Positions 1 to 11,366 of a stretch of DNA of 11,366 nt are shown one piece after another (position 1 is the first letter of the stretch; every line of letters begins with the position of its first letter). The stretch comes from Candidatus Omnitrophota bacterium (GTDB lineage: Bacteria > Omnitrophota > Gorgyraeia > Aquiviventales > Aquiviventaceae): assembly GCA_016192545.1 (NCBI GenBank), contig JACPTX010000051.1, forward strand, positions 1 through 11,366, in the 5' to 3' direction. The notes beneath the pieces are model-generated. The model searched no databases. It worked only from the letters and a program-made list of their open reading frames with translations, and was not told the origin of the DNA. The position numbers and the translations under genes are program-made.

Positions 1-151
1 CGCACGACAACCCCCGCTGGGCGTGGATGTCGTTGGCGAACAGGGCGGCCGGGCCGCGCGCCTCGCCCTCCATCTGGCGGTGGCACTCGACGCAGCTGTT
101 CGATGGCGGCTCAGCCCTCGCCAGGCCGGGCGCCAGCGCCAGGCTGGCCAT
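1..151 (-). CDS. c-type cytochrome, 5' part only. Starts at ATG 151 and runs off the left window edge. Begins with a signal-peptide-like N-terminus, then CVECH, then a ...[12 protein letters not shown] segment (paired-CXXCH style). Likely the cytochrome c partner of the Rieske/cytochrome b complex.
   Basis: Minus-strand translation from ATG(151) reads [50 protein letters not shown] with no stop before position 1. It lies 14 nt downstream of the cytochrome b stop. The ORF track does not list it because its stop lies outside the window. Confidence 0.55.
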
Positions 152-165
152 GAGACTGAGGCGTG

Positions 166-1186
166 TTAATGCGCGTGCGGTGTCACCCATGCGGCGTACC
201 CTGTCATCCCGAGGATATACGAGACTGCGGCGATCCCGGCCGCCCACACCACCCACGAGGCCCTGCCCTTCCGGGCGGGCCGGTCCAGCCACGGCACCAG
301 CACGAGCACGGCACCGGCCGCCCCTGTGAGCCCCACCGCGATCAACTCGCCCTCGATGCCGAACACATGACCCGGAAACAGCTTCAGCGTCTGGAACATC
401 CAGAGGAAGTACCACTCGGGCTGGATCCCGACCGGCGTCGGCGCGAAGGGATCCGCCTTCGTGCCACGCGACCACGTCGCGCAGCAGGAAGTTGGGGAAA
501 AAAGGCCTGGACCGGTCGTCCGTCACCGAGAGGGGCTTGCTCATCCCCTGGAGCTGAATCATCACGAGATGGACCGCCAGGAGGGCGAGGAGCCCGGCCG
601 GCAGCACCGCGATATGGAACCAGAAAAATCTCGTGAGCGTGACGTCCCCGACGTCGCTGCCGCCGCGAAGAATCATCTGCATGACCGGCCCCACGACGGG
701 CACGACCCCGGCGATCTCCGTGCCCACCTTCGTCGCAAAGAACGCCAGGGTGTTCCACGGCAGGAGATAGCCGGTGAAGCCGAATCCCAGCAAGAGGAAG
801 AAGAGGAGCACCCCGGTGACCCAGGTGAGCTCGCGCGGCGGGCGGTACGCCTTTAGGAAAAACGTGCTGGCCAGGTGCACCATGGCGCAGAGGATCACGA
901 GGTTCGCCGCCCACGCGTGGACGCTCCGGATGAGCCATCCGAACTCGACCTTCGTCATGATGAAGCGGATGGACTCGAACGCCTCCTGCGCGGAGGGACG
1001 GTAATACAACAGGAGCAGGAGACCGCTGGCGAGCTGAATGCCGATGAGCACGAGGGTCATCCCGCCCCAGTAGTACCAGACGCTGTGGCGGTGGAGGGGG
1101 ACGGTCTTGTGGGTGGCCAGCTCAGCCAACCCGCCGAACTGGTAGCGCTCGCGGAGGAAGGCGCGCAGCCGTTCGATGAGGGCCAT
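166..1186 (-). pseudogene. petB/qcrB-like: Cytochrome b of a bc/b6f-type complex, b6-like with a fused subunit-IV-like C-terminus. The reading frame is interrupted around 455-466 and a roughly 20-aa segment (helix E) appears to be missing. This is either a genuine pseudogene or an assembly/sequencing error.
   Basis: From ATG 1186 the frame reads MALIERL...[24 protein letters not shown] (two His 14 residues apart, helix B)...[15 protein letters not shown]...GYLLPWN...[47 protein letters not shown] (two His 15 residues apart, helix D)...[15 protein letters not shown]. This is a strong cytochrome b6 signature. The protein then continues only in the +1 frame (ORF 166..399 and its upstream extension): [30 protein letters not shown] plus two more hydrophobic helices, i.e. 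the subunit IV / cytochrome b C-terminus with a PEWY motif. Between DVVAW and ADPF there are only about 4 codons, where homologues have a roughly 25-30 aa transmembrane helix. Confidence 0.7.
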
Positions 1187-1191
1187 CGGCC

Positions 1192-1659
1192 TCAGGCGGG
1201 TTTGGAGACGATGATCTCCTCACCCCGCACGTTCACCTGGAAGGCCTCCAGGGGCCGCGGGGGCGGACCGGAGATGACCTGGCCGTTGAGGTCGAACTTG
1301 CCGTTGTGGCACGCGCACCAGATGACGCTGACCTGAGGGTCGTACTGGACGGTGCAGTTGAGGTGGGTGCACACGGCAGAAAACGCTTTGAGCTCGCCTT
1401 GGGGCGTATGGATGAGAATCCCGGGACGGTTGCCGAATCGAAAGACCTTTGCGCTGTTTGTCGCCACTTCCCCGATCTGAGCGGCCACGACGTTTGACAC
1501 TGACGATTCCGCGCCGCGAGGGGGGTAGAGATACCGCACGATGGGATAGAGCGCGGCGCCGAGGAACGCGAGGACGCCTCCCTTGAGCAGGAACCGCAAG
1601 AAGGCTCGCCGGCTAATCGGCTGCGCTGGACACATCAGACGCGTTGCGCCACGCTGCAT
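1192..1659 (-). CDS. petC/qcrA-like: Rieske [2Fe-2S] iron-sulfur subunit of the cytochrome bc complex, Tat-dependent. Alternative starts are GTG 1689 and ATG 1635.
   Basis: Rieske box I CTHLNC and box II CACHNG. There is a twin-arginine motif SRRAFLRF followed by a hydrophobic anchor. GAGGG lies 8 nt upstream of ATG 1659. The stop is 5 nt before the cytochrome b ATG. Confidence 0.9.
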
Positions 1660-1716
1660 CCGGCCTGCCCTCGAGCGCCCGGTGGACACTCATCGTCGAC
1701 CATCATACCATAATGA

Positions 1717-2244
1717 TTACCAGAGCTTGGCGGCTTCTTCCTCAAGACCGGCATAGAGCTCCTGGTAGCGGTCCGGGTATTGCTGTTGAAACTCTTCAAG
1801 CAGGCGCTCCCGGAACGCCTCGAACTCCTCCCGCCGGTCAAGCTTGCGCACCTGGGAGTCGTGGACGAGGAACTCCCAGAGCTGCCTGGCCTCCGAGCCG
1901 TTGATCTGGCTGCCGGGTTTGTGCCACATCACCCTGACGTAGTGCTCCCAGAACGCGGGACTGGCCCATTGGGAATTGACGGCTCGAGCCAGGGTATGGC
2001 ACCGGGAGCACCTCCGCGCGAACAGGGCATACGAGCGCTGCATCTGCGGCGGATAGCCGGACACGTCAATCTCATCCGGACCTAGGTCGTTGGCGTACGG
2101 CCGCTTCGCGGCTTCCTGGATCTGCTCCTGCGTCCGCTGTTCGTCCGGCGACGGCTCTTGGGCGCCGAGGGGCGGCACCCCCCACGCCGTCAGCGCGATC
2201 AGCAGGGGCGCCGCCAGCCACCGGCGCATGCCTCGCCGCGGCAT
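1717..2244 (-). CDS. Monohaem c-type cytochrome, secreted, with an acidic coiled C-terminus. It occupies the ActE-like position at the end of the ACIII/Qrc-like module.
   Basis: Single CSRCH motif. N-terminus MPRRGMRRWLAAPLLIALTAWG resembles a signal peptide. ATG 2244 overlaps the upstream stop (TAATG). The ORF track start at 2256 is a GTG. Confidence 0.75.
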   Translation of the reverse strand: MPRRGMRRWLAAPLLIALTAWGVPPLGAQEPSPDEQRTQEQIQEAAKRPYANDLGPDEIDVSGYPPQMQRSYALFARRCSRCHTLARAVNSQWASPAFWEHYVRVMWHKPGSQINGSEARQLWEFLVHDSQVRKLDRREEFEAFRERLLEEFQQQYPDRYQELYAGLEEEAAKLW

Positions 2245-3608
2245 TAGCGAGACCACTCCCAGGCCGTCTTCGTTGCAGGCGCCGGCGGCGCCTCGCCCTC
2301 AGGCAGATAGGTTGTGAGCCGCTCCACGGTGTCCTGGATTCCCCGCTGCCGGCCCTCCTCCACCTCCCAGACCGAAATGATCGGAAACACCTTGGCGAAG
2401 AGCGTGTACAGCAGGAGGAACGCCGCAAAGGCCCCCGCGGTGATCGCTCCCTCCACCCACGTCGGCGTATAGCCGCTGGTGGGAACGGGCAGCCGCGGGT
2501 TGATGAGCGAAGGCACGACGATGATGAACCGCTCCAGCCACATGCCGACGAGGATGGTGCTCGAGGCCACCACCATGCCCGGAATCGTGCGGGTGGCGGG
2601 CAGGCTCAGGATGACGAGGGGAATGGCGAAACAACAGGCCGCCATGGTCCAGAAGTAGGGCGCGTAGGGCCCGGAGAGCTTGGCCCAGAAAATCGTCATC
2701 TCATCCGGCTCATGTCCGTAGAATGTGGTGAGGTACTCCGCAAAGGTGAAGTAGGTCCACAGGCACGTCATCACCAGCAGGAGGAGGCCGAGGTTCTTGA
2801 AGTGGACCGGCTTGAGGTACGCCTCCAGCCGGTAGGTCTTGCGCAGCACCGCCATCGCGAGGATCAGGGCGGCGATCCCGGAGTAGATCGCGCCCACGAC
2901 AAAATACGGGCCGAAAATGGTGCTATGCCACATCGGCTGAACGGTCATGGCGAAGACCCAGGAGACGACCGTGTGGACCGAGACGGCGATGGGGATGACG
3001 ACGACCGCCAGCACGGCGATCGCCAGCTCCAGCCGGTGCCGCTCGTTCGGCGTGCCCCGCCAGCCCAGCGCCAGGGCACCGTAGAACCATCGCCGCCGCG
3101 GCAGCCGGTCTCTGAGGAGCGCGATGTCCGGAATGAGCGGCAGGTAGAGATAGCAGATGCTGGCTGTCACATAGGTGGTGATGCTCGTGACGTCCCACAG
3201 CAGGGGGGAGCGGAAATTGGGATGCAGGAAGACGTTGAGCGCCCGGTCCGGGCGCCCGAGATCCATGATGATGTTGCCCGCCCCGATAAACAGGACCAGG
3301 ACGGTGATCGTCTCCGCCATGCGCGTGATCGGCCTCCGCCATTCGGCCTGGCAGAGGCGCAGGATCGCCGAGATCAGCGTCCCGGCATGGCTGATGCCGA
3401 TGAAGAATACGAAGTTGGTGATGTAGATGCCCCAGAACACCGGGCGGTTCAGGCCGGTCACGACGAGGCCGTCGCGAAGCTGGTGCACCCAGGCATAGGC
3501 CGCGAAGCCGATGACGGCCAGCAGGAATCCGACGAGCAGGAAAAATGGCCTCGAAAACCGGGTCATCGAGGCGATCAGGTCGGCTTCGAGGTCCCGCGGC
3601 TGCGCCAT
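2244..3608 (-). CDS. NrfD/PsrC-family integral membrane quinone-interacting subunit. About 10 hydrophobic segments, ActC/QrcD/DsrP-like in size.
   Basis: 454 aa and highly hydrophobic, with a WGIYITNFVFFIGISHAG-type NrfD-family motif. It starts 2 nt after the FeS-subunit stop. Confidence 0.85.
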   Translation of the reverse strand: MAQPRDLEADLIASMTRFSRPFFLLVGFLLAVIGFAAYAWVHQLRDGLVVTGLNRPVFWGIYITNFVFFIGISHAGTLISAILRLCQAEWRRPITRMAETITVLVLFIGAGNIIMDLGRPDRALNVFLHPNFRSPLLWDVTSITTYVTASICYLYLPLIPDIALLRDRLPRRRWFYGALALGWRGTPNERHRLELAIAVLAVVVIPIAVSVHTVVSWVFAMTVQPMWHSTIFGPYFVVGAIYSGIAALILAMAVLRKTYRLEAYLKPVHFKNLGLLLLVMTCLWTYFTFAEYLTTFYGHEPDEMTIFWAKLSGPYAPYFWTMAACCFAIPLVILSLPATRTIPGMVVASSTILVGMWLERFIIVVPSLINPRLPVPTSGYTPTWVEGAITAGAFAAFLLLYTLFAKVFPIISVWEVEEGRQRGIQDTVERLTTYLPEGEAPPAPATKTAWEWSR

Positions 3609-3610
3609 CG

Positions 3611-4429
3611 TCAGGCCTCAGCGAGGTAGGTCACTTTGGGTCGCGTCCCCAACTCTTCCTGCAACAGCGAGCGGCGGGGGCTCCGCCCCAGCTGCGACGC
3701 CGCGCTGTTCGGCTCGTCGAGATCGCCGAAGGCAATGGCTCGGGCGGGGCAGACCTGCATGCACGCCGGCACATAGTCCCCCTCGCGCAGGGTCCGTCCG
3801 TCGCTGGCGGCCTGCTCCTTCGCCCGGATGAGCCGGTGGTGGCAAAAGGTGCATTTCTCGGTGACGCCCTTGGGGCGCACCGACACATCGGGGTTGTGCA
3901 TGGCCTCCATCGGCGCGGGCCAGGTGGGCGTCGACCAGTTGAAGAACTTGCAGGTGTAGGGACAGGCGTTGACGCAGTAGCGGCAGCCGATGCACCGGGG
4001 ATAGATTTGGGCGACCAACCCTTCCGGATTTTTGTACGTGGCAAAGACCGGGCAGACCGGGGTGCAGGGCGGCCGATCGCAGTGCTGGCACGGGACGGGC
4101 ATGAGGCGCTGGCGCACCGCCGGGTATTCCCCCTCTGTTGAGGGGAGCAGCGTCATCCACTCGATGATGCGCCCGGCCCGATGCGCCTCGGGACTCGGCA
4201 GCGGCTGGTTGTTCTCCGCCCAGCAGGCGACCACGCAGGCCTGGCAGCCCGTGCACCGATCCAGGTCGATCACCATCCCCCACCGGTGCGGGCGAGCCGC
4301 GACGGCTTGCCCAGGCGCCTGACGGACCGACGCCTCGGCCTTCGACAGACGTCGAAAGAGCGCGAGCGACGCCGCGGCCGCCAGGGCCCGGGCGAGGAAC
4401 GAGCGTCGAGAATAGGCTAGGCCTTCCAT
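3611..4429 (-). CDS. Four-cluster [4Fe-4S] ferredoxin-type electron-transfer subunit (PsrB/NrfC/ActB2/QrcC-like) with its own Tat signal.
   Basis: RRSFLARALAAAASLALF Tat motif. Four Cys clusters: CTGCQACVVAC; CQHCDRPPCTPVCP; CIGCRYCVNACP; CTFCHH...CMQVCP. Its ATG overlaps the upstream gene by 13 nt (ATGGAAGGCCTAG). Confidence 0.9.
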   Translation of the reverse strand: MEGLAYSRRSFLARALAAAASLALFRRLSKAEASVRQAPGQAVAARPHRWGMVIDLDRCTGCQACVVACWAENNQPLPSPEAHRAGRIIEWMTLLPSTEGEYPAVRQRLMPVPCQHCDRPPCTPVCPVFATYKNPEGLVAQIYPRCIGCRYCVNACPYTCKFFNWSTPTWPAPMEAMHNPDVSVRPKGVTEKCTFCHHRLIRAKEQAASDGRTLREGDYVPACMQVCPARAIAFGDLDEPNSAASQLGRSPRRSLLQEELGTRPKVTYLAEA

Positions 4430-6687
4430 ACCTTCACCAGCGTCCCTTGCCAGAACGGCTGCCCGGTTTGCTCATCCAGCCGGCGGCCAACCAGATGAGC
4501 CGGATTGGCGCCGATGTCCTTGGCCCAGCGGCCGCACGCCAGATGGCCAAGCCCAAGGGGCATGGCGACCACGCCTGGCACCACGCCTTCACACCAGCGG
4601 GCCGTGGCCTCCACCTTCCCATGAAGCGATGCGATCCAGATCCGCTCGCCATCGCGGATGCCGAACTGCCGGGCCGTGCTCGGGTGGAGTTCCGCCCACG
4701 TCTCCCACGCCTCGGAGAGGTGGCGGCCGGCGATCTGCTGCAGGAACGGCAGATGCGCGCCGGTCCCCGCAAGGAAGGCCAGGGGCGAGTAGAGATAGAG
4801 CTGTAGGGGAGCGTGCTGCGCCTCGCCACCACCGGCCTCCGCCGAAGCCGTTTCGAGGAGGGTCGTCATGGCGTCCGGGAACAACTCCAGCCGTCCGGAC
4901 GGCGTGCGAAACTCAGCCCACGGGGCGTCTTCCGCGGGCCAGACCGCTCCCCCGCCCAACCGTAGACGCTCCAGCAGCCCCTCGCCGCTCGTTGGAGGCT
5001 TGTCCGCCTCTCGCATCGTCTCGCTCGACCACCTGATCGGCGGAAGCGGCGTCCCGGACTTCGTCTCGTAGAGCGCCTGCGCCCGCTCCTTGACGAGCGG
5101 CTCCACCGAATCCCAGGGGAACGCGCCCGCCACGGGCGGGCCGAGCGCGCGGGCCAGCTGGAGGATCACCTCCTCCAACGCCCGGGCTGCTCCGCGCGGC
5201 GGCACCACCGGAGGGGTGATGTTCACCGCCGCGCGGCCGTCGCTGGTGCAGACGGACGCGAACTGCCACTGCTCCAGCGCGGTCGCCAGCGGCAGCACGA
5301 GGTCCGCGTGGAGCGCCGTCTCATCAAGCATCGACGCGAAGCTCACGATGAACGGCATCCGGCCCAAGGCCTCGACCCACCGCGAGGGCGATGGGCTGAT
5401 GAAGCAGGGGTTGGCCTGGTGGACGCAGAGGATCTCGATGGGCGCCTCGGTCCCATCGAGAAGGTGTTCGGGCAGCCGTTCGGCGTGCGCCAGCCGCTGG
5501 GCCTGCAGGCCCCGCTCGGCGACGTCATCGCGCGCCGGCTCGGGAGGCAGCGAGAGCCCCGGCGGCTCCCAGCGCCGCAGGACGCCGCCGCGCGCATCGA
5601 GGTTCCCCACCAATCCGTTCAGGCTCATGACGGCCCATTGGGTCATCAGATCCGCCCGCGCTCCCACGGCGAGGCCCCGTCTCAGGCCGAACTCCTTCGC
5701 CAGGCGCTGGATGGTTTCCGGAGGAACGCCCGTCCGCTCCGCCACCGCCTCCGGATCGGCGCGGGAGGCGACGAAGCGCGCGAAGGGCTCCAATCCGACG
5801 CTGTTCTGCGCCAGCTGATCATGGATGAGCCGCTCGCGGATCAGCACGTGCGCGATCCCCAGGGCGAGCCACCCGTCCTGCCCAGGCCGAATGGGGATCC
5901 ACTCGTCACTCTTCGCCGCCGTCATGGAGAGCCGCGGTTCCACCTGGACGATGCGCGCCCGCCGATCGCTGCGGCCCTGGCGAAGCCACCCGTATGCGCG
6001 CGAGGCTTCCACCGGCGAGGGATAGGCCTGAAGCCAGTCAAGGCCGAAGGAGAGGAGCAGGTTGGCCTGCGCGAGATCGTAGAGCGGCTCGCCCTCCCGA
6101 TCCACCATCAGTCGAAATGCCTCGGCTGGCAGCTCTCCGGCCGGCGGGCTCAAGACAAGATCGTGCGGGGATCCCCACGCGCGCAGGAAACGCTGGATGA
6201 GCTGCCGGCCGAGACTCCGGGAGGGACCGCTCAGCCAAGCCAAGCGCTGCGGCTCGCCGCGCTGGCGAAGCCCGCGAAGGCGGTCCACGAGCAACGGCAT
6301 CGCCTCCTCCCACGCCACCGGCTCGAAGCGGCCCTCACCCCGCTCGCCCACCCGCCGCAGCGGCTGGAGGAGGCGATCCGGATGGTAGAGCTCGGTGAGG
6401 CCTGCGGCACCTCGCGGACAGAGGGCGCCCTGATTGACCGGATGGGCGGGAAGCCCCTCCAGCTTCACGACTCGGCCTTGCACCACGCGCGCCGCGACGC
6501 CGCAGCCGGCCGGACACAGTTGACAGACGGAAGGCGCCCACTGCTCCGGCGCCCTCGGCAACAGCTCTTCGTCCGCGGCGGGAGGCGGCAAGCCCAGCAG
6601 CCGATACTTGATGAGATCCTCCACGGCCCCTGCGGTGGTCGCGATGAGGCCGGTCAGTCCAAGAAAGGCGCGCCGGGTCAGTTCCAT
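4417..6687 (-). CDS. Molybdopterin-oxidoreductase-family large subunit (PsrA/PhsA-size, ActB1/QrcB-like). Tat-exported, with an N-terminal FS0 [4Fe-4S] motif.
   Basis: MELTRRAFLGL Tat signal. C-x2-C-x3-C-x27-C-PRG (CQLCPAGC...CPRG). VAWEEAM and C-terminal GIRDGERIWIAS...GVVAMPLG motifs are typical of the family. GGAG lies 10 nt upstream of the ATG. There is no Cys between residue 91 and about 420, so the usual Cys Mo ligand is absent. Confidence 0.85.
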   Translation of the reverse strand: MELTRRAFLGLTGLIATTAGAVEDLIKYRLLGLPPPAADEELLPRAPEQWAPSVCQLCPAGCGVAARVVQGRVVKLEGLPAHPVNQGALCPRGAAGLTELYHPDRLLQPLRRVGERGEGRFEPVAWEEAMPLLVDRLRGLRQRGEPQRLAWLSGPSRSLGRQLIQRFLRAWGSPHDLVLSPPAGELPAEAFRLMVDREGEPLYDLAQANLLLSFGLDWLQAYPSPVEASRAYGWLRQGRSDRRARIVQVEPRLSMTAAKSDEWIPIRPGQDGWLALGIAHVLIRERLIHDQLAQNSVGLEPFARFVASRADPEAVAERTGVPPETIQRLAKEFGLRRGLAVGARADLMTQWAVMSLNGLVGNLDARGGVLRRWEPPGLSLPPEPARDDVAERGLQAQRLAHAERLPEHLLDGTEAPIEILCVHQANPCFISPSPSRWVEALGRMPFIVSFASMLDETALHADLVLPLATALEQWQFASVCTSDGRAAVNITPPVVPPRGAARALEEVILQLARALGPPVAGAFPWDSVEPLVKERAQALYETKSGTPLPPIRWSSETMREADKPPTSGEGLLERLRLGGGAVWPAEDAPWAEFRTPSGRLELFPDAMTTLLETASAEAGGGEAQHAPLQLYLYSPLAFLAGTGAHLPFLQQIAGRHLSEAWETWAELHPSTARQFGIRDGERIWIASLHGKVEATARWCEGVVPGVVAMPLGLGHLACGRWAKDIGANPAHLVGRRLDEQTGQPFWQGTLVKVWKA

Positions 6688-6920
6688 CGACGTGGTGGCT
6701 CCGGGGCGCCGCCGGCCTGCTGGGCCAGGAAGCGGTCAATGGCCTGGATGACCAGCCGGCTCTTTGGCAGCGATTCACCCCGCTCCCACCGGTTCAGGCT
6801 GGAGTACGCGACCCCCAATTGATGGGCGCAATACTCCTGCGACCACCCCCTGGCTCGACGGAGGGCCGTCACCTGTTTAATGGCGCGTTTCAGCCGCGTC
6901 GTCTGCGTATCCATCTGCAT
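6678..6920 (-). CDS. XRE-family helix-turn-helix transcriptional regulator (80 aa).
   Basis: GWSQEYCAHQLGVAYSSLNRWERGESLPKSRLVIQAIDRFL is a classic HTH_3 pattern. Its stop overlaps the ATG of the downstream Mo-family subunit (ATGGAACTGA). Confidence 0.7.
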   Translation of the reverse strand: MQMDTQTTRLKRAIKQVTALRRARGWSQEYCAHQLGVAYSSLNRWERGESLPKSRLVIQAIDRFLAQQAGGAPEPPRRWN

Positions 6921-6997
6921 AGCATAAGATACAACACATGGGCATCAGAAAAACATGACATACGTCATACAGGATGGCGGCGCGCCCGCGCACGCGG
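6921..6997 (-). promoter_or_regulatory. AT-rich intergenic region carrying the inverted repeat ATGAC-N4-GTCAT. Candidate promoter/operator for the XRE-led operon.
   Basis: This is the only AT-rich stretch in the window. It sits between the pentahaem cytochrome stop and the XRE start. 6955..6968 reads atgacatacgtcat, and ACATG occurs twice as a direct repeat. Confidence 0.3.
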
Positions 6998-7522
6998 CTA
7001 CCGATGGCAGGCGAGGCAGTCGGTGGTGACCTGCCGCTGCCGATGGCACTCCAGGCAGCGGTCCATCGTGAGGGGAGCGGCCTGGCGGACGACGGGGGCC
7101 GTCACTTGGCTCAGGTCCCCGTGGCAGAGGGCGCAGTCAAGTTGCGCGAGCGTCACGTGGCGCCGGTGCGAGAAATACGCGTGCCCGGGCACCCGGTAGA
7201 CCTGCTTCCAGGGGATCTCCTCGCCGCGCGCGGCCACCTGCTCCAGCTGCGGCCCGACTCGGTCCAGCACCGGCGTCTGGACGCCGACCGCCGCGTGGCA
7301 GTCCACGCAGTCCGTGACCGCCGGGACGCCGGCGAAGGTCTCCGTTTCGGCCTGCGCATGGCAGGTCACGCAGGTGAGCCCCGCCGCGAGATGCTTCTGG
7401 TGGTTGAACGGGATGAGCGGCTGGACCGCCTGAGGGCGCTGGCTGGCGCGCTCGCGCATCGCGTAGAACGTCGTGCCCGCGAGGACCGCCAGGGCGACCA
7501 GCAGCAGGAGGCGCTCCCTCAT
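6998..7522 (-). CDS. Membrane-anchored pentahaem c-type cytochrome built from two c3/c7-like units. Candidates are ActA/QrcA-like or a CymA-like quinol-side partner.
   Basis: N-terminal hydrophobic helix MRERLLLLVALAVLAGTTFYA. Five CXXCH motifs (CVTCH, CVDCH, CALCH, CLECH, CLACH). Two F-x-H-x2-H motifs (FNHQKH, FSHRRH) precede haem sites. Confidence 0.85.
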   Translation of the reverse strand: MRERLLLLVALAVLAGTTFYAMRERASQRPQAVQPLIPFNHQKHLAAGLTCVTCHAQAETETFAGVPAVTDCVDCHAAVGVQTPVLDRVGPQLEQVAARGEEIPWKQVYRVPGHAYFSHRRHVTLAQLDCALCHGDLSQVTAPVVRQAAPLTMDRCLECHRQRQVTTDCLACHR

Positions 7523-7543
7523 GTCGTCGGCCGAGAGGAGGCG

Positions 7544-8428
7544 CTAGGACGTGGTGGCGTGAGGTGGAGGGGGGCTCTTCGGAACACCTTGCGCAAGCGC
7601 CGTGAGGCCGGTCATCGCTCCCAGGTTCATGGTCTCCACGGCACTGGAAGGCACGATGATGATGGTGGAGCTCTGACGCATGCCCTCCAGCAGGATGTTC
7701 ATGGCGCGCAGGTGCAGGGCCGTCGGGTTCTCCGCGTACGCGCGGGAGGCTTCTTCGAAGCTGCGGGCCACCTGGCGCTCCGAGTCTCCCAGGATGATCC
7801 GCGCCTGCCGTTCGCGCTCGGCCTGGGCCTGCATCGACATCGCGTTCTGGAGCGCCTCGGGGATCTTCACGTCCCGGATCTCGACGGACAGGGCCTTGAT
7901 GCCCCACGGCTCGGTGCGGTGGTCGATCGTCTCGCACAGCAGCACGTCAATCTTGTCCCTTCCGATGAGCATCTCCGCCAGGTCCGTCTTGCCGATCACG
8001 TCCCGCAGGGCGGTTTGCGAGGCCCAGGCGATCGCCTCGCGGTAATTCTCGACTTCCAGCGCCGCTTTGATCGAGTCCACCACCCGCCAGAACAGCACGG
8101 CGTCCACGTCAACCGGCACGCTGTCCTTCGTCAAGGTCTGCTCGGCGGCGAATGGTGTGGTGATGGTCCGCAGGTCGATCCAGTGGGAGATGGCGTCGAG
8201 GATCGGCACGATCAGGAAGAACCCGGGCCCCTTGAGCCGGTGGAACCTTCCCAACCGCAAGACCACCGCCTTCTGCCACTGCTGGGCCACGCGGATCGCC
8301 GGGCTCAGCAGCAGCCCGACGGCGACCATGCCCACCGTCACCCACGGATTCCCGGTCGCCGCCCCTCCGACGAAGCCTACGGCGACGAGTGCGAGAAAGA
8401 GCAGGATCGCCAATGGGTGCGTCCCCAT
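7544..8428 (-). CDS. SPFH/band-7 (stomatin-prohibitin-flotillin-HflK/C) family membrane protein.
   Basis: N-terminal transmembrane segment followed by QQWQKAVVLRLGRFHRLKGPGFFLIVPILD...IDLRT and a long Ala/Glu/Arg-rich coiled region. AAGGAGG lies 9 nt upstream of the ATG. Confidence 0.85.
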   Translation of the reverse strand: MGTHPLAILLFLALVAVGFVGGAATGNPWVTVGMVAVGLLLSPAIRVAQQWQKAVVLRLGRFHRLKGPGFFLIVPILDAISHWIDLRTITTPFAAEQTLTKDSVPVDVDAVLFWRVVDSIKAALEVENYREAIAWASQTALRDVIGKTDLAEMLIGRDKIDVLLCETIDHRTEPWGIKALSVEIRDVKIPEALQNAMSMQAQAERERQARIILGDSERQVARSFEEASRAYAENPTALHLRAMNILLEGMRQSSTIIIVPSSAVETMNLGAMTGLTALAQGVPKSPPPPHATTS

Positions 8429-8446
8429 GATCGCTTGCCTCCTTCG

Positions 8447-10522
8447 TCAGAATTGCTGAGTCACCTCAAGCCAGATCACGTGGGCGGTATAGTCGCCGGA
8501 CTCGACGTTCTCGTTGGGGTTGTAGGTGTAGAGCGCGTAGTCAAGCCCGAGCGACGTCTGGTCACTCGGCGACCATGCGATTCCTGTCGTGAGGTCAAGC
8601 CGGTGGAAATCCGCCCCGAACGGCATCCCGGTGTCGGCGAAGTCATTGAAGTTCTGCGCCCGGGAATAGAGGAGCGAGCTGGTCCACGTCAGGTTCGGCT
8701 TGGGCGCGTAGTCCGCGCTGAAGAGCCAGCTCGAAACGTCGGCGTTGAACGTCGGGATGTTGGAGGGCGTCGAGGCATACCGGGCCGGCGTCGTGGTCGC
8801 GGCGTTCTGCCGGGAAAACGACGCCGTCGTCACCAGTTCTTTCAGCGGCTGCAGCGTCACGTCGTAGGTGTAGATGTGGGAGCGCGTGCCCGTCTTCACG
8901 GTGTCCTGCGATTCCGCCCGCGTGCTGTAATCGTCGTCGCGGTACTGGTAGCGGACGGAGGACCGGAACCACCGGCACGGCCGGAGGGTAAAGCGCGTGA
9001 CGAACTCGTTGGTGTGGATGTTCTGCTCGTCAATGAACGCCGACCGGGCCCCGCTCGCCACGGTCTCCCGCTGGTCGTCGTAGTCGTTGTTGTTGACCCG
9101 CCGGCGCACGTGCGCCGTGAGATCCAGGAACGGCCAGGGGCTGCTGCGCCCGCCGAGCGTCCAGACGCCCCGGCGCACGTCCGTGACCGTCTCGCGCATG
9201 AAGACCTCGGTGGCCACCGCGTCATTCCCCGTGTCCGGGCCGTCGAGGCTCTGGCGGTCCTCCCGCATGAGCACCCGGGACTGCTCGAATTCCAGCTCCG
9301 TATAGAGCGCCGTCCGGGGAAGGCCGGTGAAGCGCAACGAGAACCCCTCCCCCCACCGCGCCGCCTTCGTGTCCGTCAGGTTCGCCTCCGTGTGATCCAC
9401 CACCAGGTCGAAGGCCTCCGGGGACGTGACGTATTCCGAGTAGGCGGGATAGGTGGAGTTGCTTTGCCGTTTGATGACCTCGGACTTCAGCTTGGTGCCG
9501 AAGGACAGCGATTCCCCCAGCTGCGTCGTCAGGTTCCCCACCCAGGTGTGCGAGTCATAGTCGTTGTCTGCCCGCGAGTCGAACTTGTTCTCGGCGCGCG
9601 AAAAGTTCGTGACGACGCCGGCGGCGTTCATCTCGATCAGGGTTTCATACTCGCGGCTGTCCAGGTGCGCGAAGTGGTAGCCCGTCGACAGGAACACCTT
9701 CTCGTTCAGGAAATGGCGCTCGGCCCCCAGGGTCGTGGTCATGAGGGTTGACTCCGGCGCCTGGTCCTGGGTGCGCATCAGCGACTCCGAGGCGGTGGCG
9801 TTCGTCGAGCGGTACACTTCATGCCGGACGGTCTCCGAGCGCGCGAACTCCCACCGCTGCTCCCCGCGCAAGGCGAATCCCGCGAGCTCGTGGTTGGCCG
9901 TGAGCGCGAAGGCATCCACAATCTCGTCAATGTCCTGCCACGAGGGGCCGATCTTCCTGGCTTCCCCGGCCTCGGTCACGGACGTCCACGTCAGGCGGGA
10001 TTTGGCCCCGTCCTTGAATTCCCGCTCATAGGCGAACGACAATTCCGGCCACCCTTCCAGCGTCAGGCCGGTTTCCACACCCAACTTCCCGATGTCCAGC
10101 GCCAGGTCTTCATCGGCATCAATAGTCTGGAAGGTCGAAAAACGCCGATGGGTCCCGCCATTGCCGTCGAAGTATTTGCGGAACTCGGAATACTCCAGAT
10201 TGAAGAAGCCGAGCGTATCCTTCTTGAGTTCCACATCCGTTCCGAAGTCATTCTGGCTTGGGAACGCATGCCCTTCAGCGGAGAGGAACGTGCCATCAGG
10301 CAGGGTGTGCCGGAACAGGAACTCCTTCACCCCGCCTGCGTAGCCCTCTTTCATCCAGTGGTGGGCGCGGAATTTTTCGACGTCGCCGTCCACGAAGGCA
10401 TAGCGCATCGGCACCAGCGCCACGGCGACTTCCGGGTCCGCGGCCTCCACCCCACCAGGCCAGCACCAAAACCCGCCGGCCGCCACCATGGCCAGGACCG
10501 TCACGCGTCGCATGGCTCGCAT
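8447..10522 (-). CDS. Outer-membrane beta-barrel protein of 691 aa. Its context suggests an MtrB/PioB/MtoB-like porin of a porin-cytochrome conduit.
   Basis: Signal peptide MRAMRRVTVLAMVAAGGFWCWPGGVEA|AD. Polar/aromatic alternating beta-strand patterns throughout. Terminal ...YTAHVIWLEVTQQF ends in Phe. GGGAGG lies 7 nt upstream of the ATG. The gene sits immediately (15 nt) downstream of a multihaem cytochrome c gene. Confidence 0.6.
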   Translation of the reverse strand: MRAMRRVTVLAMVAAGGFWCWPGGVEAADPEVAVALVPMRYAFVDGDVEKFRAHHWMKEGYAGGVKEFLFRHTLPDGTFLSAEGHAFPSQNDFGTDVELKKDTLGFFNLEYSEFRKYFDGNGGTHRRFSTFQTIDADEDLALDIGKLGVETGLTLEGWPELSFAYEREFKDGAKSRLTWTSVTEAGEARKIGPSWQDIDEIVDAFALTANHELAGFALRGEQRWEFARSETVRHEVYRSTNATASESLMRTQDQAPESTLMTTTLGAERHFLNEKVFLSTGYHFAHLDSREYETLIEMNAAGVVTNFSRAENKFDSRADNDYDSHTWVGNLTTQLGESLSFGTKLKSEVIKRQSNSTYPAYSEYVTSPEAFDLVVDHTEANLTDTKAARWGEGFSLRFTGLPRTALYTELEFEQSRVLMREDRQSLDGPDTGNDAVATEVFMRETVTDVRRGVWTLGGRSSPWPFLDLTAHVRRRVNNNDYDDQRETVASGARSAFIDEQNIHTNEFVTRFTLRPCRWFRSSVRYQYRDDDYSTRAESQDTVKTGTRSHIYTYDVTLQPLKELVTTASFSRQNAATTTPARYASTPSNIPTFNADVSSWLFSADYAPKPNLTWTSSLLYSRAQNFNDFADTGMPFGADFHRLDLTTGIAWSPSDQTSLGLDYALYTYNPNENVESGDYTAHVIWLEVTQQF

Positions 10523-10537
10523 TGTCCGCCTCCCGGG

Positions 10538-11366
10538 TTAATAGCGCAGGTGCTCGTCAAAGTTCGACCCGTGCGGGGCCGTATGACAGCCCGCGCTGAA
10601 ACACGTCCCCTGATTCAGCCGGCCCGAATGGCTCGACCCCCCGATCGTCGGGAAGTTGGTCTGGGTATGGCAGCGCAGGCAGAGGTTGACATCCCGCACC
10701 AGCAGCATCTTTTCGTGAATCGAGCCGTGGACCTTATGGCAGGTCGTGCAACCCTCCCGCAGCGCCTCGTGTTCCCACACGAACGGCCCGCGCTGCTCCT
10801 TGTGGCATCGGAAGCACGCCTCATTGATGTCTTTCAGCGACGTGGCGGACCACGGCCGGACGTCCGGGGCGTGGGCGTTGTGGCAATCCGCGCAACTCAT
10901 CTTGCCCTCAAGCAGCGGGTGGTGGTAGGGCAATCGAAACTCCGCTTTCTTATCTAAATGGCAAGCGAAGCAGGTGCTGGGGTCTTTGCGCGGATTAATG
11001 ATGCCGCCCACCCCGCGGCCTCCCCCGGCCTCGACGTGCAGGCTGCCGGGCCCGTGGCACATCTCACAGCCCTGCCCTTTGACGTTCTCGTCGGTAATCC
11101 TGATCCTGGCGTGGGTCGACTGCTGGAACTCTTGGTACTTCTTTTCGTGGCATGCCCGGCAGGTTTCCGTGCCGACGTATTCGGCTTCCGGTGGCTCGAC
11201 CGGCTTGGCGGACTCCTCGGCGGACTCGGCCCATGCCTCAGGCGCGACTAACCGACTGAGATACGCTTGCAACTGGCCTGCGGCATCGGGTGACTGCCGC
11301 GAAGAGTGCGGAGGGCTTTCTTCGACGTCGTTCTTCTTGATCGGCGCGACACCCGCCGGCACAGAC
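10538..11366 (-). CDS. Multihaem c-type cytochrome with at least 8 haems in the window. The N-terminus lies beyond the right window edge. MtrA/PioA/OmaB-like periplasmic partner of the downstream beta-barrel.
   Basis: CRACH, CEMCH, CFACH, CADCH, CFRCH, CTTCH, CLRCH plus CFSAGCH (CX4CH), spaced about 25-30 aa apart with interleaved His. The ORF is open to the window edge; the listed 'M' at 11362 is a GTG. Confidence 0.9.
   Translation of the reverse strand, partial: SVPAGVAPIKKNDVEESPPHSSRQSPDAAGQLQAYLSRLVAPEAWAESAEESAKPVEPPEAEYVGTETCRACHEKKYQEFQQSTHARIRITDENVKGQGCEMCHGPGSLHVEAGGGRGVGGIINPRKDPSTCFACHLDKKAEFRLPYHHPLLEGKMSCADCHNAHAPDVRPWSATSLKDINEACFRCHKEQRGPFVWEHEALREGCTTCHKVHGSIHEKMLLVRDVNLCLRCHTQTNFPTIGGSSHSGRLNQGTCFSAGCHTAPHGSNFDEHLRY

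Follow-up and report, generated by a model that had tools for sequence, protein, structure and literature searches.

The closest described counterparts of the gene treated here are the fused cytochromes b of groundwater Omnitrophota MAGs. They are single polypeptides of 355–358 aa, deposited as 'cytochrome bc complex cytochrome b subunit', and they are 74–81% identical to P0001, the intact form of the protein discussed below. As in the fused type, the intact allele has PF00033, PF13631 and PF00032, the four haem-ligand histidines and the PEWY motif, and it has a Rieske gene directly upstream and a c-type cytochrome gene downstream. The copy in the window, i.e., the whole stretch of 11,366 nt that was analyzed, departs from this type: it is short by 56 nt, its halves are out of frame, and residues 242–260 are absent.

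The b6f complex is a second point of comparison. Split genes for cytochrome b6 and subunit IV are known in cyanobacteria, chloroplasts and Firmicutes. Residues 10–219 of the protein align to cytochrome b6, or PetB (PDB 6RQF, 1VF5, 1Q90 and 7R0W; E = 1e-53), and residues 227–324 align to residues 29–125 of subunit IV, or PetD, a region that takes in helix E, the PEWY loop and helix F. Whereas b6f has PetB and PetD encoded by two genes, a single polypeptide is the rule here, and the window lacks the stretch that corresponds to the core of helix E in subunit IV. The cysteine of the b6 motif FYCLGG is the haem ci ligand. The corresponding position is W in this protein (VWYYWGG, residues 35–41, window 1063–1083, minus strand), and in the alignment the relatives also have mostly W, with some F, L, M, C and I. 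The replacement suggests that this cytochrome b clade, though b6-like overall, probably lacks haem ci.

The cytochrome b gene is on the minus strand, and translation of the reverse complement places its ATG at window position 1186. Two frames are needed to follow it. The first, at 464–1186, encodes residues 1–241, i.e., helices A to D and the first 13 residues of helix E. Its last W codon, that of W241, is at 466–464, and from there on the frame is stop-free to the window edge. The second, at 166–462, runs from codon ACG (462–460) to the stop (168–166) and encodes residues 261–358 of the intact protein, with the ADPF...PEWY ef loop, helices F and G, and the final AWVTPHAH. PF00033 (Cytochrome_B, E = 1.5e-49) and PF13631 (Cytochrom_B_N_2) are found by Pfam in the first frame, the latter matching profile positions 2–146 of 169 and then breaking off; PF00032 (Cytochrom_B_C, E = 6.8e-11) is found in the second. 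The first-pass annotation had placed two cytochrome b halves in different frames at these coordinates, and translation and Pfam bear this out. The frame changes at 464–466, a TGG that is the sole sequence common to both breakpoints. Across the junction the window reads GACGTGGTCGCGTGGCACGAAGGCGGATCC, the deleted form being a join of GTCGCGTGG to CACGAAGGCGG. Neither a continuous helix E in one frame nor a separate petD gene is present in the window copy.

The intact allele is seen directly in two other read sets. A homologue search with both window halves joined had P0001 as its top match, a 358-aa protein encoded by an uninterrupted gene on Logan contig L001 (run SRR12113424, 12,176 nt). Thousands of single-polypeptide cytochromes b were returned by the same search; the full-length ones are nearly all 353–362 aa, and those with names are from groundwater Omnitrophota. 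P0001 and the window halves are identical, with the N-terminal part matching P0001 residues 1–241 at 100%, save for 19 extra residues in P0001, VLVLGLVLCLSVYWPATLG, located between ...VVAW and TKADPF.... At the DNA level, BLASTN aligns 10,723 nt of the window to L001 at 99.92% identity; the 9 mismatches all lie outside cytochrome b. Over the adjoining 466 nt the identity is 100%, and the DNA of the C-terminal part is likewise 100% identical to L001. When the BLASTN blocks are extended base by base, the window is found to be without exactly 56 nt, that is, 3 × 18 + 2. The absent segment, GTCTTGGTGCTGGGATTGGTGTTGTGCCTGAGCGTCTACTGGCCCGCCACCCTTGG, directly follows TGG in the intact allele. A deletion of the 3n + 2 class had been predicted at the first pass, with a size of about 59–62 nt, which is slightly high.

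The second intact assembly is Logan contig L004 (SRR4343428_71714; 1,907 nt), equivalent to window 326–2176, which is 99.9% identical to the window with 2 SNPs and has the 56 nt. Its run belongs to a different and much earlier SRA accession series than SRR121134xx. The occurrence of the same organism in SRR4343428 and in SRR121134xx indicates that two separate sequencing submissions drew on almost the same strain. Thus, the intact allele is found in both of the independent assemblies that span the site. In effect, they supply what the first-pass annotation had expected of resequencing, the return of about 60 nt together with the frame: 56 nt come back, and the frame with them.

The remaining records fit around these two. 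Look-ups of the Rieske and NrfD proteins gave six further Logan contigs (SRR12113384, -420, -421, -426 and SRR4343428), one of which, from SRR4343428, reaches the junction; the four from SRR12113384, -420, -421 and -426 are from the same organism and end short of it. In a collection of 5.8 billion proteins, the deleted form is confined to the window's own record, where P0061, the deposited window product, stands as one member from one contig. Exact look-ups of window-haplotype proteins (P0061, the 756-aa molybdopterin subunit with V341, and a 691-aa protein) returned no record. An exact-match scan of genome contigs and metagenome contigs with the 28-nt left flank gave no match; it follows that no JGI contig carries either allele and that the MAG is not a GTDB species representative. 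The SRR accessions had no match in papers or in the supplements of He et al. 2021.

The missing residues fall in a conserved part of the protein. Among 26 aligned homologues, whose identity ranges from 81% down to 55%, the 19 columns are ungapped in every one, and within them P256 and G260 are invariant or nearly so. Elsewhere in the alignment, all 27 sequences have H90, H104, H191 and H206, the two pairs of haem-ligand histidines on helices B and D of the N-terminal four-helix bundle, and in the PEWY motif P, E and W are invariant and Y nearly so. Since all 26 homologues have the 19 columns, the alternative that the first-pass annotation had allowed for, an E region that is naturally short in this lineage, is ruled out.

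HMMER comparisons with solved structures place the segment in helix E of b6f subunit IV, and also in helix E of chicken mitochondrial cytochrome b, directly before the ...PEWY loop. AlphaFold modelling of the intact protein (mean pLDDT 78.6, pTM 0.80) has helix E extending from residue 229 to 254. Judged by this model, residues 242–260 are predicted to comprise the C-terminal 13 of the 26 residues of helix E and the next 6, the start of the ef loop. The earlier claim that helix E is missing was therefore right about where the loss lies and too sweeping about its extent, as the model has half of the helix remaining and the loss reaching into the loop. The 13 helix E residues that are left are too few for a membrane crossing. 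By Kyte–Doolittle analysis, the intact protein has seven hydrophobic segments, the halves joined in frame would have six, and the product as read has four. With half of helix E lost and four segments in place of seven, the window gene as written cannot yield a functional cytochrome b, as had been concluded at the first pass.

One relative in the alignment, P0045 (406 aa), is extended at the N terminus, and its D–E loop contains an insertion of 27 low-complexity residues, TPPPAASAGGGSAHSAGPFGPAAGGGA, with a high content of Pro, Ala and Gly (alignment A1, columns ~257–283). The insertion may be a real loop expansion, or it may be another assembly or annotation oddity.

The deposited gene call across the break is MBI3088268.1 (P0061), a 395-aa product of the 11,366-nt contig described as 'cytochrome b N-terminal domain-containing protein, partial' from Candidatus Omnitrophica bacterium. 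The corresponding read-through ORF, an artefact, occupies window 1–1186 on the minus strand. It consists of cytochrome b residues 1–241 followed by 154 further residues, of which about 90 are out-of-frame and the rest belong, in frame, to the beginning of the multihaem cytochrome c that lies downstream. That is, the loss of 56 nt brings the downstream cytochrome c into the frame of the N-terminal half of cytochrome b, and a gene caller does fuse the two, as had been anticipated. At a G+C content of 66.6%, the coding regions of the window have 19 off-frame stop-free runs of at least 104 codons, holding 43% of the off-frame residues; a long open off-frame is unremarkable in such GC-rich DNA.

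The broken gene is part of a single co-directional gene string, window 1–7522 on the minus strand, in which a multihaem cytochrome c and a Rieske/cytochrome b pair of the b6f type are joined to a quinone module resembling Qrc and alternative complex III. All NCBIfam matches in the string are below the curated cut-offs. The quinone module, all on the minus strand, has a QrcA-like multihaem c (6998–7522), a small HTH regulator (6678–6920), a QrcB/PhsA-like molybdopterin subunit (4417–6687), a QrcC/DsrO-like FeS subunit (3611–4429), an NrfD/DsrP-like membrane subunit (2244–3608) and a 175-aa protein of no family (1717–2244). Immediately upstream of cytochrome b is the Rieske iron-sulfur subunit (1192–1659, minus strand; 155 aa), with Pfam matches to Rieske (1.7e-13) and TM_PetC and a b6f-type NCBIfam match below the curated cut-off. 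This exact Rieske protein is present in four Logan runs. On the other side, the window edge cuts the multihaem cytochrome c, the start of which lies at 1–151 (minus strand) and has a signal-like N-terminus and a CVECH haem motif; the gene was mapped from the L001 gene call at 11092–11769.

Two features of the remaining DNA were also seen. Plus-strand ORFs without a Pfam match, at 6974–9751 (925 aa) and 9821–10957 (378 aa), lie opposite real genes that were called on the minus strand of the Logan contig; these ORFs are shadows of the sort typical of 67% G+C DNA, not genes. In addition, of the nine SNPs that separate the window from L001, six fall within 59 nt, at window 8677–8735, in a 691-aa protein without a family match (8447–10522, minus strand), where they change four positions: F601L, A606T, S615G and S616A. 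This cluster could reflect local variability among strains, a short tract of recombination or a mixed-strain consensus.

The first-pass annotation had offered either a pseudogene or a mis-assembly, and the pair of alternatives stands. We lean towards mis-assembly, as two other read sets show the allele intact. The break occurs in the window contig alone and is most likely not biological; we put the probability that the 56-nt loss is a local assembly or scaffolding artefact, arisen in silico rather than in a cell, at about 70%. As the likeliest course of events, 56 nt would have been lost from the deposited contig while the draft MAG was being built, probably at the step in which two contigs are scaffolded and joined, with a short real gap treated as absent. 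The IDBA scaffolder may join contigs in this way where the estimated gap is non-positive. Such a join would take away residues 242–260, which comprise half of helix E and the first part of the ef loop, and would shift the frame. Because the shifted frame happens to be stop-free in GC-rich DNA, the pipeline would then produce a chimeric 'partial' protein running into the next gene.

The gene itself and its junction agree with such an event. The retained 1,021 nt of cytochrome b have zero substitutions relative to the intact allele, and the haem ligands and PEWY are all intact; outside the 56-nt gap, comparison with that allele reveals no extra decay in the form of substitutions, stops or additional frameshifts. 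Against a deletion driven by the local sequence, the 56-nt segment has no flanking direct repeat beyond the 3-nt TGG, the inverted repeats nearby are weak only, and no significant hairpin is apparent at the junction, where the DNA folds no better than shuffles (z = −0.69). The lack of a k-mer-sized repeat at the junction excludes a de Bruijn, or k-mer, repeat collapse. What the junction is compatible with is a scaffold join over a misjudged short gap or a microhomology-mediated deletion.

The origin of the contig points to a suitable pipeline. MBI3088268.1 is numbered between the cytochromes b of the NC_groundwater MAGs JACPRA (MBI2885151) and JACQHR (MBI3997007), and this accession order, together with the relatives found, makes it very probable that the contig belongs to the NC_groundwater MAG set of He et al. 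According to passages of He et al. 2021 (PMC7906910), each filter was assembled with MEGAHIT, followed by the scaffolding function of IDBA-UD; those passages make no mention of error curation (ra2, 'assembly errors'). Chen et al. 2020, Genome Res. (PMC7111523), report 13 local assembly errors in one 1.13-Mb genome, the defining property of such an error being a consensus without even one perfectly supporting read. Like those errors, the break described here is a short consensus stretch that contradicts independent assemblies, interrupts a conserved gene and comes from a pipeline with the IDBA-UD scaffolder. Unlike them, it is seen by assembly comparison and not at the read level.

The main rival has the deletion occur in a cell: a strain or subpopulation of the Omnitrophota would recently have lost 56 bp by slippage at TGG, inactivating its Rieske/cytochrome b complex, and this allele would have entered the MAG consensus. 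We regard this as clearly less likely than an artefact. The break is physically there in the deposited contig, and MEGAHIT contigs require read support at every k-mer; against this, the scaffolding step used for the data set could produce the same break without any biological event. A slipped-strand deletion would also leave a 3-nt microhomology such as the TGG common to the breakpoints, but the signal is weak, as roughly 6% of random junctions are estimated to show at least as much. A consideration against an artefact is that the window represents a haplotype distinct from the Logan contigs: it has 9 SNPs relative to L001, 6 of them clustered in 59 nt, which distinguish it from the contigs with the intact allele, and the G at window 5667 is absent from both Logan contigs that cover that site. 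The window may therefore stem from a strain or sample other than those of the Logan contigs, and there the deletion could be genuine. On the other hand, every other assembly that spans the site has the intact allele only, and so the lesion, which a pseudogene should show again in independent assemblies, is reproduced in neither of them. A real deletion would, moreover, strike a core respiratory subunit inside an otherwise intact gene string, and, with no other lesion in cytochrome b, it would have to be extremely recent. A more specific version, in which a natural groundwater subpopulation of Omnitrophota has very recently lost the Rieske/cytochrome b complex but retained the Qrc-like module next to it, is doubtful to a slightly greater degree.

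All other explanations together account for a few per cent. The two halves might be natural, either as a petB/petD-like split or as a lineage-specific cytochrome b with a very short or absent helix E, and it is true that in the PDB matches b6 and subunit IV are separate chains. The relatives, however, are single polypeptides in 26 of 26 cases (~355–406 aa) with the 19 columns ungapped, and contigs 99.9% identical to the window encode the fused, complete protein. A petB/petD-type split was also rejected on the reading frames: the N-terminal frame has no stop after helix D and is open to the window edge, and the C-terminal frame has no ATG from the junction to PEWY, its first ATG (MFQTLK) being at 399, past PEWY. 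This reading has next to no probability. The same very low standing goes to a rescue of the product from the window sequence by programmed ribosomal frameshifting or translational bypass. Two clearly coding frames do abut within a few nucleotides, as such a rescue would have it, but even a perfect change of frame leaves the protein 19 residues and one membrane crossing short (six segments instead of seven), and the relatives and near-identical contigs have the gene in one uninterrupted frame. A programmed frameshift was rejected in that the frame change is not conserved in homologues and, by the folding result given above, no stable local structure is present.

The main value of the finding is as a data-quality flag. 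MBI3088268.1 is a chimera and is unfit for alignments, phylogenies and metabolic reconstructions. Were a subpopulation loss real, it would be a snapshot of respiratory-chain gene loss under way; the deletion as such, if real, would be an unremarkable recent loss-of-function allele. Most likely, the 56-nt gap is not new biology. The correct 358-aa cytochrome b sequence of the organism is recoverable as P0001, and, going by that sequence, its real gene would be an ordinary intact one, encoding a 358-residue, seven-helix cytochrome b of a Rieske/cytochrome b complex in which b6 and subunit IV are fused.
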